Below, piece after piece: positions 9,476 to 13,343 of a stretch of 64,000 nucleotides of DNA; the stretch's first letter is position 1; each line of letters begins with the position of its first letter. The notes under the pieces are model-generated. The model had not been told where the DNA came from. It ran no database searches and saw only the letters and a program-made list of their open reading frames with translations. The translations under genes were made by a program, and so were the position numbers. The stretch is from Polyangiales bacterium. Lineage in GTDB: Bacteria > Myxococcota_A > Polyangia > Polyangiales > JADJQN01. Location of the stretch: NCBI GenBank assembly GCA_964202905.1, contig CAXNJO010000001.1, forward strand, positions 416,001-480,000, read 5' to 3'.

Positions 9476-10009
9476 CTACTCGCGGAGCAGCCCGAACTGG
9501 CTCTGGAGGAGGTGAGACGTGACGTCGTCCCAGGCCTCGTCGCCCTCGTTCATCGCGACCGACGCGATGTGCACGTTGAGCACGACGCGCTCGACCTTCG
9601 AGGTGAGGCCCGCGGGCTGCGCCTTCTTACCGGGCCGCACGAAGATCGCCTCGGTGCCGGGCACCGGAAACGGCCGCGAGATGTGCATCGTCTGCGTGTA
9701 CTTGCGCTGCCCGCCGGCGAGGCTCGCGCCAAGCAGCGAGTGCGCCGCCTCCGGCCGGCCCGTGCGCCGGTCGATGACCTCGATGCACTCGAGCGCCGAG
9801 TCGACGACGTACACGCGGTTGCGCGTCCACACCTCGAGCATCCGATAGCGCTGCCCCGTGGCGCGGGCCTCGCTCGCGGCGAGCACCTGCGCCTGCCGCG
9901 ACAGCACCACCTCGATGGGTGGCGGCTCCCTCGGCGGCGACGCGGCGTCGGCGGAGATCATCGTCGGCTCGTCGTCGTCGTCGTGGAAAGAATCGCCCCG
10001 GCGCGCCAT
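9476..10009 (-). CDS. Hypothetical protein with acidic N-terminus
   Basis: Coding-like ORF (LEVWTRNRVYVVDSALECIEVIDRRTG); no family recognised. Confidence 0.65.
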   Translation of the reverse strand: MARRGDSFHDDDDEPTMISADAASPPREPPPIEVVLSRQAQVLAASEARATGQRYRMLEVWTRNRVYVVDSALECIEVIDRRTGRPEAAHSLLGASLAGGQRKYTQTMHISRPFPVPGTEAIFVRPGKKAQPAGLTSKVERVVLNVHIASVAMNEGDEAWDDVTSHLLQSQFGLLRE

Positions 10010-10051
10010 GGGCGCAGACGTTACCACGCCTTCCAACGAGCCAAGGCGCCC

Positions 10052-11233
10052 TCAGCCGGCGTGCGCAGCGAGGCGCACGCGACGCCGACGCCGCCAGCGC
10101 CAGAGGAGCGTGAGCGTGACGAGCGGCGTGACGGCCGCGGCCGCAAACGCCGCCGGATACAGGTACTCGCGGGCCTGCCCGAAGCGCACGCGCGGCGGGC
10201 GCGGACGCTCGACCACGACGACCGGACCGGACGGCGGCGTGGCCTCTCCCTGACGGGTCTCGGCGACCGTGGCGCGCGGCGGCGGCGCGACGATGCCGAT
10301 GTGGTTCATCACCTCGCGCTCGTTGCCGCGGACGAAGACCTCCTCGGCGCCGTCGCCGCGCTGCCGGACGCGCGCGCCCGTTTGCCGCGCACGCGCCTCG
10401 CGCGACTCGCGTGCGCCGAGCCCGAGCTTGGCCTCCCAGCGGCCCCCCGATGGCGAGTTCACGATGCCGCCCTCTTCGGCCACGAACATCGCGCTCGAGC
10501 CGCCGCCGTCGAGGTTGAGCGCGCGGTCCGCGCCGAACTCCACGAACATCCGCGCGAGCTCGTAGAGGGTCATGCCGTGGCTGTGACCCTGGCGTCCATC
10601 GACCACGATCAGGATGACCTTCTTGCCATCTCTGGAGATGCCCACGGAGGAGCGCGGGTGCCGCAGGTTCGCGCTGTCGAAGGCGTCGAGCGAGACGAGG
10701 TCGAGCCGCCCGTCGCGCACCAGCATCGGCTGCCCGCTCACGGCCTCGCTGACACGCTCGAGCGCGATGCGGTCCTCGTCGAGCTCCGGCGCGCTGATCC
10801 ACGCACGCCCGCCGCGCGTCACCGCGAAGAAGCCGATCTCCGTGTCGTCCTCGCCATCGGGCCAGCGCGCGCCCCCACCCGCCGTGACGCCTTCGGCGTG
10901 CTGGAGCATCCCCCAGAACCCGCCGTTGGTCGCGGCCGCGAGGCGGTTGCGCGTCGCGTACTCGCTCACCGTGCTCCAGCGCTCCTCGTAAGGCGTCGCG
11001 CGGATGCGGACGCCGGGGTGCGCGAGGTCGACGACGAGCGCGTGGATGGTGCTCGGCAGCGTCGTCGTGCGGACGAGGTGGCGGACGCCGGGGTTCGGGT
11101 CGAGCCAGCGGTCGGTGTGCGCGACCGGCGGGCGACGACGCTCCTGCGCGGCCGCGCGAGCGCCGGGCGCACCGCAGACGGCGGCGAGCGCAAGGACGAC
11201 GAAAAGCGCCTGTGAAATCGGCGTGTTGACCAC
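10052..11233 (-). CDS. Phosphodiester glycosidase (NAGPA/DUF2233) family protein with signal peptide and C-terminal TM anchor
   Basis: AATNGGFW, SGQPMLVRDG, RHPRSSVG, VVDGRQ..SHGMT, ALNLDGGGSSAM, NSPS, EREVMN. Hydrophobic C-terminus followed by WRWRRRRR. Start approximate (GTG 11233). Confidence 0.88.
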   Translation of the reverse strand: MVNTPISQALFVVLALAAVCGAPGARAAAQERRRPPVAHTDRWLDPNPGVRHLVRTTTLPSTIHALVVDLAHPGVRIRATPYEERWSTVSEYATRNRLAAATNGGFWGMLQHAEGVTAGGGARWPDGEDDTEIGFFAVTRGGRAWISAPELDEDRIALERVSEAVSGQPMLVRDGRLDLVSLDAFDSANLRHPRSSVGISRDGKKVILIVVDGRQGHSHGMTLYELARMFVEFGADRALNLDGGGSSAMFVAEEGGIVNSPSGGRWEAKLGLGARESREARARQTGARVRQRGDGAEEVFVRGNEREVMNHIGIVAPPPRATVAETRQGEATPPSGPVVVVERPRPPRVRFGQAREYLYPAAFAAAAVTPLVTLTLLWRWRRRRRVRLAAHAG

Positions 11234-11439
11234 CGACGCACAGCCCGCGTGCGCTCCGCGGCGCGGGGCGCGGGTCACGCGGGACGGTGGCTCCTCCCGG
11301 CGGGCGCGGTGGGTACGGCGGCATGGACGCGGCGGATTATTCGCAAACGCGGCGTCCACGGCAAAGGAACCGCAGCCCGTGTCACTCTCTGGCCGCCGCC
11401 TGCGCGCCGGTGTACAGGCGAGCGCCTCGAGGCCCAAAC

Positions 11440-12798
11440 GTGCTTGCCGACGGAACCGCCCCACGCCCTGCACCGCGACGCGCGTCGCACCTCCGCGCCG
11501 CGCTCCTGCTCGCGCTCGGCGTCGGCGCCTGTGCCGGCAACTCGGGCGGCGGCGATCCCGGCCCCGCGCCCGCCGCGACACCGCGCGCACCGTCCCGCCC
11601 CGATCCCCGCGCCGCGGCCTCCCCCGCCGATCTCCCGGACGCGTCCCCCGCGGACGCCGCGTCTCAGGGCCCACACGACGGCGCGGCCGGCGGCGCGGAC
11701 GGGGGCGCGCTCGCAGACCCGCCCCCCGAGGGCCTGCGCGGCGGCGGCTGGTACTTCGAGGTCCCCGACGCCGACCTTCGCGAGCGCCTCGCGACGCAGC
11801 CGCTGCGCGAGGTCAAGCGCGGCTACGGCGGCCGCAGCGTCGCGTTCAAGATCACGCTCGAGGACGGCTCGCAGGGCTACTACAAGCCGGAGCAGCGCTT
11901 CTCGGCGGCGCACTGGTGGTCGGAGGTCGCCGCCTACCACCTCGACCGCGCGCTCGGCCTGCACCGCACGCCGCCCGTCGTCTCGCGCCGCCTGCCGTGG
12001 TCGGTGCTGCGCGCGGCGGCACCGGACGACGAACGCTTCGCGGAGGTGATCGTCGGCGACGACGGCACGGTGCGCGGCTGCTTCTCGTACTGGGTGCCCG
12101 ACCGCCTCGTGCCGATGCGCTTCGGGCGCGGCTGGGAGCGCTGGGTCCGCGTGCAGACGTGGCCGGAGACCGCCGTGTCCCCATTCCAGCGGCCGCGCGT
12201 CTACACGAACCGCCTCGCCGCGCAGCGCGCCGGCACGGACGCCGATGCAGGCGCGCCCCGTCCGGGCGCGGTGGGTCTCGCCCTGCCTTCGTCGCCGGAC
12301 GGCGAGAGCGAGCCCGGCTTCGCGACCACGACCGACCTCGCCGCCAACGAGCGCAACGACGAGGGGACGCAACTCCCGCTCGCGCCCGCGAGCCCCGACG
12401 AACCCGAGCGCGCCGCCGAGCTCTCCGACCTCGTCGTGTTCGATTACCTCACGCAGAACACCGATCGCTGGGGCGGCGGCAACGCGAACGTGCTCACGCG
12501 CGGCCACGGCGGCCGCATCGTCTTCCTCGACAACGCCGCGGGATTCCCCGACACGCCGAGCGTCTCGAGCGGCCTGATGGACGCGCGGCTCCGCGTGCTC
12601 CAGCGCTTCCGCCGACGCACGGTCGCCGCGCTCCGAGCGCTCGACGTCGCGCGGTTCGCGCAGCGCCTCGCGGGCGAACCGCTCGCGCCGATCCTCGGCG
12701 AACGCCAGATCGCGCAGCTCGAGACGCGGCGCCGCACGGTGCTCGAGCGCGTCGCCGAGCTCGAGGCGCGCTTCGGCAGCGCCGCGATCCTGCCCTGA
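11440..12798 (+). CDS. Exported lipoprotein atypical kinase, Four-jointed/Fam20-like
   Basis: Lipobox LGVGAC and Pro/Ala linker, then GYGGRS..FKITL..GYYKP, SEVAAYHLDRALG..RTPPVVSR, DLVVFDYLTQNTDR, IVFLDNAAGF. Start approximate. Confidence 0.75.
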   Translation: MLADGTAPRPAPRRASHLRAALLLALGVGACAGNSGGGDPGPAPAATPRAPSRPDPRAAASPADLPDASPADAASQGPHDGAAGGADGGALADPPPEGLRGGGWYFEVPDADLRERLATQPLREVKRGYGGRSVAFKITLEDGSQGYYKPEQRFSAAHWWSEVAAYHLDRALGLHRTPPVVSRRLPWSVLRAAAPDDERFAEVIVGDDGTVRGCFSYWVPDRLVPMRFGRGWERWVRVQTWPETAVSPFQRPRVYTNRLAAQRAGTDADAGAPRPGAVGLALPSSPDGESEPGFATTTDLAANERNDEGTQLPLAPASPDEPERAAELSDLVVFDYLTQNTDRWGGGNANVLTRGHGGRIVFLDNAAGFPDTPSVSSGLMDARLRVLQRFRRRTVAALRALDVARFAQRLAGEPLAPILGERQIAQLETRRRTVLERVAELEARFGSAAILP

Positions 12799-12846
12799 CG
12801 GCGGCGAGCGCTCGCCCGTCGCGCGGTGCGCACGCGCGGGGTGCGC

Positions 12847-13074
12847 TCAGTGCGCGGGCGGCGTGGGCTGCTCGGCGCGGGGCGTCAGGTGCATGCCGCA
12901 CACCGGACAATCGCCCGGCCCGACGTGCGAGTAGGGCGTCGCCTCGCCGGGCTTGATGCACTGCATCGGGCACTCGTAGACGCGCGTGTCGGCTTGCGCG
13001 GGGGCGGCCTCGGCCCCGCTCGCGCCGCCGCACGCCGCAGCCACCGGGAGCAGGATCGCGAAGAGGAATCGCAT
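12847..13074 (-). CDS. Small lipoprotein with heavy-metal-binding domain (YxCPM...PGxCPxCGMxL)
   Basis: Lipobox AAAC; YECPMQC...GPGDCPVCGMHLTP. Confidence 0.8.
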   Translation of the reverse strand: MRFLFAILLPVAAACGGASGAEAAPAQADTRVYECPMQCIKPGEATPYSHVGPGDCPVCGMHLTPRAEQPTPPAH

Positions 13075-13343
13075 CGGGAGGCGGGACATCCCGCGTGACT
13101 AGCACGACGCGCCCCGGCCAGGCGAGTCCGCCGGCGCGCCCCGACACGCCGGCCACCCGAGCCGCCACCGCCGCGGTCCACGGCGTCGGGCGCGGGCGGC
13201 GCCGTGGCGCGAACACCAAGAAAAGCGCCTACATTCGGGGACTTCGAGGATGTGATGCGGCCGCCGCGGAGCGCGTCCGATCCCCTCGTGGAGAGGCCGC
13301 CGACCCGCTACCCCGCGGCACGCCGCGTGCTCTCCACGGCGGC

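Follow-up and report, generated by a model that had tools for sequence, protein, structure and literature searches.

The window considered here is the whole 64-kb stretch of DNA that was analysed, taken from the genome of a Polyangiales bacterium, and our subject is a gene on its plus strand (11440-12798) that encodes a 452-residue protein, read from a GTG codon at 11440 within an open reading frame (ORF) covering 11287..12798. An earlier annotation, made by a model from the letters alone (the sequence-only reading), had proposed that this protein is an exported kinase of the Fam20 type, and our analysis leads us to consider it probable that the gene encodes a catalytically competent, exported and lipid-anchored Fam20-family kinase. 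The protein is homologous to Fam20 proteins, shares their fold, carries intact active-site residues and bears an export signal of the kinds that are conserved among its relatives.

The protein starts with a predicted lipoprotein signal peptide (residues 1-30, 11440..11529) that has arginines at positions 9, 13, 14 and 19 in its n-region and AALLLALGVGA as its core, and whose helix spans residues 14-28 in the predicted model. The motif LLLALGVGAC (residues 22-31, 11503-11532) closes on the lipobox cysteine, Cys31, in frame at 11530..11532 (V-G-A-C), which is the predicted lipid-attachment site and first mature residue. Next comes a tether rich in Ala, Pro, Gly and Asp (26%, 20%, 17% and 12%, respectively) at residues 32-100 (11533..11739), which had been called disordered and which is indeed mostly predicted to be so, with a predicted local distance difference test score (pLDDT) below 50 at residues 31-46 and 51-91. 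The N-lobe and first part of a Fam20-type kinase domain, as supported by alignment of the profile of relatives to Fam20C, occupy residues 101-258 (11740..12213) and contain the Gly loop GYGGRS (residues 128-133, 11821-11838), the YYKPEQ stretch (11878-11895) with K149 (codon 11884-11886) and Q152, the SEVAAYHLDRALG segment (residues 161-173, 11920-11958) with the helix-C glutamate E162 (11923-11925), the AAYHLDR motif, and RTPPVVSR (residues 176-183, 11965-11988). A lineage-specific low-complexity insertion, partly disordered according to its pLDDT, follows at residues 259-322 (12214..12405), and most relatives align as two stretches on either side of it. The C-lobe (residues 323-452, 12406..12795), supported by the Pfam Fam20C match at 320-440, by alignments to Fam20A, Fam20B and Fam20C and by invariant columns, includes the catalytic segment DLVVFDYLTQNTDR (residues 330-343, 12427-12468) with D335, N340, D342 (12463-12465) and R343, then N350, IVFLDNAAGF (residues 360-369, 12517-12546) with D364 (12529-12531), and the C-terminal helices; the stop codon lies at 12796..12798. 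The ORF 11287..12798 (+), translated from GTG 11440, thus contains every motif named by the sequence-only reading, all of them in frame.

GTG 11440 is the start codon that we favour, because a Shine-Dalgarno-like GAGG can be read directly in the sequence 7 nucleotides (nt) 5' of it (11429..11432, +), because the GC content by codon position shifts at this point, and because an identical 452-residue protein with the same start is present in a public collection (P0002). The in-frame stretch upstream (11287-11439) is flat in this respect, with 0.73/0.73/0.71 at the three codon positions, and the values become gene-like past the start (0.90/0.75/0.85 over 11440-11739 and 0.76/0.54/0.95 over 11740-12795). 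It is nevertheless conceivable, if very improbable, that the protein is cytoplasmic, with its true start elsewhere and the apparent lipoprotein signal unused: further in-frame starts lie upstream at GTG 11287 and ATG 11323, and the gene call for a relative with 76% identity (P0007) gives it a longer N-terminus (..DYSQVPRPPQRNRKP..), which the window's in-frame translation of 11287-11439 (+) resembles (..DYSQTRRPRQRNRSP..). The upstream stretch is either conserved for a regulatory role or an alternative start, and initiation may take place at ATG 11323, in which case the hydrophobic segment and the lipobox would stay in place. A scan found no in-frame ATG, GTG or TTG from after 11440 to the Cys31 codon, which means that the hydrophobic segment belongs to the protein whichever start is used; this argues against a cytoplasmic location, as do the lack of codon-position GC bias upstream, the GAGG before 11440, and the three kinds of export signal that recur across the family (see below). 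The N-terminus MLADGTAPRPAPRRASHLRAALLLALGVGA|C, with its charged n-region, hydrophobic core and lipobox cysteine, has the make-up of a bacterial lipoprotein, and the lipobox falls within the N-terminus that is best supported by the GAGG and the codon-position GC shift. In a metatranscriptome library, a single contig of 200 nt maps to 12582-12781 with 2 differences, which we did not count as evidence of transcription because such libraries can contain DNA. Metagenomes of lake water, freshwater and sediment, produced by several studies, also contain near-identical DNA.

When the window protein was compared with all chains of the Protein Data Bank (PDB) using phmmer, only 6 sequences matched at E<=10, and all of them were Fam20 proteins (top 1.1e-8). 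A family profile and alignment built from 76 bacterial relatives gave a much stronger signal: it matched solved human Fam20C at E=5.6e-38 over profile positions 81-375 and chain residues 107-429, essentially the whole domain, followed by zebrafish Fam20C (2.1e-34), nematode Fam20 (2.8e-30), Fam20A (3.5e-29) and Fam20B (1.5e-27). Six Fam20 sequences were matched in this range (5.6e-38 to 1.5e-27) before the top non-Fam20 match, an unrelated centromere protein at E=0.0086, and the type II phosphatidylinositol 4-kinase (PI4K) beta, PI4K2B, at E=0.065. In bits, Fam20C scored 134, the pseudokinase Fam20A 105 and Fam20B 100. Among the 76 relatives themselves, Pfam Fam20C was matched by 70 at E<=0.01 (best 4.5e-19), FAM198 by 44 at E<=0.01 and HipA_2 by 11. 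The window protein scored 25.0 bits with Pfam FAM198, exactly at the cut-off, over 27 residues (159-185) covering the AAYHLDR..PPV stretch; it stayed below the cut-off for HipA_2 (19.3 versus 27 bits) and far below that for NCBIfam TIGR03843, the SCO1664 family (18.9 versus 172.4 bits). Public annotations agree with these comparisons, in that PF06702 is precomputed on 110 of the 120 homologues listed, three homologues carry the JGI name 'Golgi casein kinase, C-terminal, Fam20', and the ESM Atlas returned only bacterial (Myxococcota) clusters, some of them automatically named for the Fam20 Pfam domain. Altogether, the alignments indicate a homology of both lobes that is nearer to the solved Fam20 proteins than to any other kinase-like family.

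The predicted fold points in the same direction. An AlphaFold2 model built on the 76-relative alignment has a mean pLDDT of 81.3 and a predicted template modelling score of 0.75; pLDDT below 50 is confined to residues 1-12, 31-46, 51-91, 275-284 and 288-303, and the means of ten-residue blocks are 87 for residues 101-110 and 90-98 for 111-260. The sequence-only reading had suggested a structural comparison with Fam20, PI4K and HipA. Foldseek against the PDB placed Fam20 structures in all listed rows 1-28 (E 6.1e-16 to 8.9e-10), the first other row being PI4KIIalpha at rank 29 (1.3e-4), with CtkA at 5.6e-4. VIA-align of the model against 48,161 representative chains ranked zebrafish Fam20C first (Z 25.8, root-mean-square deviation 2.8 A over 275 aligned residues), then hydra Fam20, of the Fam20B type (Z 25.5), nematode Fam20 (Z 24.5) and human Fam20A (Z 20.4); PI4KIIalpha (Z 16.2), CtkA (Z 14.9), actin-fragmin kinase (Z 13.1), CotH (Z 11.8), HipA (Z 11.5, with HipA structures at 10.4-11.5) and MavQ (Z 9.8) scored lower. 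On the predicted model, both methods thus make Fam20 the best structural match, rather than PI4K or HipA.

In Fam20C, the functions of an ATP lysine, a helix-C glutamate, a catalytic Asp and a metal-binding Asp have been assigned. In the profile alignment, the window motifs fall on the Fam20C motifs SGG, FKP, AEIAAFHLDR, FDFLMGNMDR and HLDNGRGF, and eleven positions are invariant in 76/76 relatives (G131, K149, Q152, E162, W218, D335, N340, D342, R343, N350 and D364), so that the claim of an intact active site held for every catalytic residue that had been named. To judge by its sequence, this residue pattern is that of an active enzyme and not of a pseudokinase. A kinase fold that does not transfer phosphate, either as an ATP-binding, Fam20A-like pseudokinase or scaffold or by catalysing other nucleotide chemistry, such as the AMPylation or glutamylation carried out by some atypical kinase folds, appears improbable. 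The pseudokinase Fam20A is itself a close match in structure (Z 20.4), and references in the available part of a 2021 review in the Journal of Biological Chemistry (PMC7948968) name pseudokinases with other activities, SidJ and an AMPylating pseudokinase. Such a reading has to contend with the presence of K149, E162, D342, N350 and D364 in the window protein and all 76 relatives, and with the fact that the active Fam20C outscores Fam20A in the profile comparison (134 versus 105 bits).

A second, divergent Fam20-like lipoprotein encoded by the same genome outside the window (G000:C1:787683-788810; L082:4684-5820, +) also speaks for a pseudokinase, as an Arg stands where the ATP lysine would be, the Gly loop is missing and HLDR is replaced by RIAR, even though the Glu and both Asp are retained. 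This paralogue escapes Pfam detection. Its line is also found in 16 other genomes examined, and of the 17 members, 14 retain the Lys and all retain the Glu and both Asp. We had considered that it could be a Fam20A-like pseudokinase partner of the window kinase, an idea that we dropped in view of the Lys retained in 14/17 members.

Export signals were then compared across the family with a crude hydropathy and lipobox rule of our own, applied to the 201 relatives in which 35 or more residues precede the kinase core. Near the N-terminus, 158 of them carry a strongly hydrophobic segment of 11 residues, followed by a lipobox in 97, and other relatives have ordinary signal peptides. Forty-three relatives had no such segment; of the 15 that we inspected, several start within the lipobox motif, which points to gene calls truncated at the 5' end. 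In a distant branch, from another family of Myxococcota, the Fam20-like domain is at the C-terminus of a 932-residue protein (L100:1005-3803, genome G006), behind a zinc-ribbon-like CxxC...CxxC, an extended region of low complexity and a single transmembrane helix, and similar long ORFs at L102 and L101 bring the proteins of that family to ~910-930 residues. This layout is that of a type II membrane protein, like Golgi enzymes. Three routes of export (lipoprotein, signal peptide and transmembrane helix) for one and the same domain suggest that its location matters, and the lipoprotein signal of the window protein together with the recurrent signals of its relatives points to a place outside the cytoplasm, in line with the original proposal. 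Export by the Tat pathway was considered as well, given the RR pair before the core of the window protein, but was rejected, as no such pair is found in relatives such as P0013, P0014 and P0019. In many lipoprotein-type relatives (P0026-P0125), the residues that immediately follow the lipobox Cys are conserved in the form C-[VI]-E-[PS]-A-R-S-A-D-[VA]-[PS], and might function in sorting or processing; the window protein does not have this pattern and reads AGNSGGGD after the Cys.

The family is large. When 1.84 billion cluster representatives (50% identity) were searched exhaustively, 655 matched at E<=1e-3, of which 348 reach E<=1e-10 and 68 reach E<=1e-30; the five distant matches that were inspected look bacterial, and one of 10 that were looked up is labelled 'Pseudomonadota bacterium'. 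A search for longer proteins with a short family alignment yielded 2 and no eukaryotic sequence. For synteny we used the best 80 loci (L002-L081) from 185,579 species genomes, all of them in metagenome-assembled genomes (that of L044 is a Sandaracinus sp.), which are labelled mostly as Sandaracinaceae, Polyangiales, Polyangiaceae, Myxococcales, Myxococcota or Deltaproteobacteria, with five vaguer labels. A kinase match (E<=1e-10) was obtained for 113 of the 401 Myxococcota genomes that were sampled, a count that is a lower bound, and in two Myxococcota families it was found in 22/23 and 33/34 genomes. Downstream of the kinase, thiE and a Fic-domain gene are found in 53/80 loci, as in the window, a histidine kinase in 47/80 and an Omp85 protein in 36/80; these counts are floors, because many loci end at contig edges. 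The family thus appears to be old and vertically inherited in bacteria, and not a recent import from animals.

Upstream of the kinase gene and divergent from it lies a gene for a NAGPA-family phosphodiester glycosidase (10052..11233, minus strand, start GTG 11233; Pfam NAGPA 1.4e-34). Its product has an N-terminal signal and, at the C-terminus, a hydrophobic segment with a run of Arg behind it. The intergenic gap measures 206 bp, in which a promoter scan picked up a single sigma-70-like site (minus strand, 11364-11336), and no terminator-like site was detected in 11100-13200. The next gene on the strand of the glycosidase (9476-10036, -) encodes a 186-residue protein without any Pfam or NCBIfam match and without a tblastn match in the 80 related loci, against which the proteins of chosen neighbours were searched in order to follow their conservation. 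On the other side, convergent with the kinase gene, 12847-13089 (-) encodes an 80-residue, Cys-rich lipoprotein (CPxxC...CPVCGM) with a sub-threshold HMBD match (21 bits for a cut-off of 23.6), which is conserved among the 80 loci only in L002; this Sandaracinaceae locus, the closest named relative, has the same gene order as the window. The other flank genes of the window are those for a DUF2079 membrane protein and thiE. We also asked whether the NAGPA-kinase pair could be a general module, and rejected this: a NAGPA gene is adjacent to the kinase in 6/80 loci (a DUF2079 gene in 13/80), the genome that contains the window has 5 NAGPA-family copies, and the family is common in bacteria, being present in 8/14 control genomes.

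In most of the 80 loci the neighbour is of another kind. An agmatine-deiminase-family gene (PAD_porph) is found directly 3' of the kinase on the same strand in 59/80 loci, with a median gap of 10 nt, and an ornithine-cyclodeaminase-family gene in the searched flank of 44/80. At L011:6782-10789 the latter is directly upstream of the kinase, and the deiminase gene, which has no signal peptide, is followed by a carbon-nitrogen hydrolase. The deiminase gene is not beside the kinase in the window and is located on contig C16 of the same genome. This neighbourhood looks conserved and related to polyamines or arginine, with no evident tie to an exported kinase.

Several observations weigh against an active Fam20 kinase in the envelope. 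The Pfam score of the window protein by itself (Fam20C, PF06702, residues 320-440) is 28.9 bits for a cut-off of 26.8, only 2 bits above it, and covers only the C-lobe. Luminal domains of animal Fam20 proteins have conserved disulfides, and their pattern is absent from the window protein: it has two cysteines in all, the lipobox Cys31 and Cys214, so none of these disulfides can form (its relatives have 0-8 cysteines, many of them 0-3). The neighbourhood, with the low adjacency counts of NAGPA and DUF2079 and with a deiminase gene beside the kinase in most loci, fails to identify the substrate. Finally, the periplasm of Gram-negative bacteria is generally regarded as free of ATP, and we found no TLC-type nucleotide-carrier gene in the 64-kb window. 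The genome encodes a single, distant homologue of TLC/NTT-type carriers (G000:C1:135215-135793; L083:1114-2964, -), which scores 43.8 bits with Pfam TLC (cut-off 21) over profile positions 161-362 of 491 and 40.3 bits with the NCBIfam model (cut-off 387), and which is unlinked to the kinase gene, ~290 kb away. A TLC-type gene lies within 8 kb of the kinase in only 3/80 loci. Across the 401 sampled Myxococcota genomes, 159 have TLC-like genes: 62 have both kinase and TLC, 51 the kinase only, 97 TLC only and 191 neither, so that 51 of the 113 kinase-bearing genomes have no TLC match. The frequencies (62/113 with the kinase versus 97/288 without it) amount to a mild enrichment that is uncorrected for relatedness, and one family has the kinase in 33/34 genomes and TLC in 5/34. 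We consequently discarded the TLC carrier as an ATP supply linked to the kinase, considering its unlinked position, its presence near the kinase in so few loci and an enrichment that is only mild.

The ATP problem would be solved if the kinase was a weapon or effector, delivered through outer-membrane vesicles or secretion and phosphorylating its targets within the prey or host cell, which would provide the ATP. A predatory lifestyle is common among Myxococcota and vesicles contain many lipoproteins, which would fit the lipoprotein signal and the long flexible tether, and host-acting bacterial kinases of related folds do appear lower in the structural list (CtkA, Z 14.9; MavQ, Z 9.8). We still regard this as unlikely: in the two families where almost every genome has it, the gene behaves as a core gene; it shows conserved synteny with housekeeping genes (thiE and the agmatine-deiminase gene, in 53/80 and 59/80 loci); and no secretion-system, immunity or toxin-module Pfam match was found among the window ORFs scanned, from 3.5 to 24.9 kb.

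Returning to the anchored kinase that we favour, we infer its phosphotransfer activity, location, substrate and ATP supply as follows. The protein would be exported by the Sec pathway, then lipidated and cleaved at Cys31, presumably with processing by signal peptidase II, which would leave the kinase domain (residues ~101-452) on a flexible tether of ~70 residues at the outer face of the inner membrane or at the outer membrane. By homology, K149 and E162 would position ATP, D364 would bind a metal, Mn2+ or Mg2+, and D342 would serve as the catalytic base, the gamma-phosphate being passed to a hydroxyl of an envelope or secreted macromolecule. We presume that the families flanking the gene in the window, NAGPA and DUF2079, act on envelope glycans or at the membrane. 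We lean slightly towards a glycan of the envelope or a secreted one, phosphorylated on a sugar hydroxyl as in the case of Fam20B, over a protein, a choice that we hold with a little less than even confidence; a protein Ser/Thr, as for Fam20C, seems a somewhat less probable but serious candidate. The lean comes from the NAGPA and DUF2079 flanks (also seen in L002), from the view that the glycan kinase Fam20B is the ancestral Fam20 in animals, as stated in the available text of the review cited above (PMC7948968), and from the listing of FAM20B in a preprint discussed below. The comparisons do not separate protein from glycan: the profile favours Fam20C (134 bits, versus 100 for Fam20B), and the two are tied in Z, which counts against the lean.

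The sequence-only reading knew of no characterised myxobacterial example, which is consistent with our searches of the full-text literature; these found no publication on a bacterial Fam20 kinase, many of the matches being to the Neisseria strain FAM20. In the available text of PMC7948968, a figure legend reads 'Fam20 is conserved in animal kingdom', 'prokaryot' is absent and 'bacteria' occurs only in a reference title, and the part available to us of a 2022 survey of the Legionella kinome describes the FAM20 cluster as 'eukaryotic- or Metazoa-specific'. More recently, the accessible part of a 2026 preprint (bioRxiv 10.64898/2026.05.08.723234) lists FAM20B among up to five possible contributions of Myxococcota to eukaryotic endomembrane functions, with Myxococcota in the sister group and a signal that is not always unequivocal. 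It would go well beyond our results, and we rate it as rather doubtful, to propose that Myxococcota carry out ATP-dependent phosphorylation outside the cytoplasm through anchored Fam20 kinases of two paralogue lines acting on envelope glycans or proteins, and that the secretory-pathway kinases of eukaryotes are sister to this prokaryotic family or descend from it. Many of these proteins already bear the Fam20 Pfam label in databases, so the window adds one member and a set of negative context results rather than a first sighting. What this adds up to is an extension of the Fam20 family to bacteria by a large, old and exported branch with an intact active site, which offers a tractable bacterial system for the original role of Fam20 kinases, challenges the working assumption that there is no ATP-dependent phosphorylation outside the bacterial cytoplasm, and bears on the contribution of Myxococcota to the eukaryotic endomembrane system that the preprint proposes.

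Among the known systems that resemble the window protein, the most distant share only the broad fold class. PI4K type II, CtkA of Helicobacter and HipA/HipT (Z 16.2, 14.9 and 11.5) all score at least 9 Z units below Fam20 (25.8), with weak sequence echoes in Pfam HipA_2 (19.3 bits) and the PI4K2B profile match (E=0.065); PI4K type II and HipA/HipT are kinases that act in the cytoplasm or on lipids. CotH acts on the forespore coat inside the mother cell, where ATP is present. It has the protein-kinase-like fold in common with the window protein (PDB 5jda, Z 11.8) as a far weaker match than Fam20, and gave no Pfam match to it at E<=1. In the available text of PMC12189002, CotH is a bacterial atypical kinase described as similar to Fam20C.

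The match to FAM198 (GASK1) is limited to the 27 residues around AAYHLDR..PPV. The catalytic motifs of FJX1 were given in the sequence-only reading as near-identical, which we take as a lead and not as a test. The glycosaminoglycan xylosylkinase Fam20B, which is defined by a saccharide-binding site, is much closer: its hydra counterpart (PDB 5xom/5xoo) is the best single-sequence PDB match (1.1e-8), it has the same catalytic motifs as the window protein, and its Z of 25.5 ties with that of Fam20C, although its profile score is lower (100 versus 134 bits).

Fam20C, the animal Golgi casein kinase (PDB 5yh3, 5yh0, 4kqa/4kqb), is the best profile match (5.6e-38). The two proteins have in common the GG of the Gly loop, the FKP lysine, AEIAA(F/Y)HLDR, FD(F/Y)L..N.DR and LDN..GF, and both enter an export pathway by an N-terminal signal. 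Fam20C, which is specific for S-x-E in proteins, has a cleaved signal peptide and resides in the Golgi; the window protein differs by its predicted lipid anchor and tether, by DRWGGG instead of DRHHYE in the catalytic segment, and by a more compact core, with alignment over 275 of 386 chain residues; identity in structural alignments is only 16-25%. Altogether, the analysis supports the view that the window gene encodes a bacterial, disulfide-free variant of Fam20 with a predicted lipid anchor and a complete active site, and that it is a member of a large uncharacterised family of Myxococcota.

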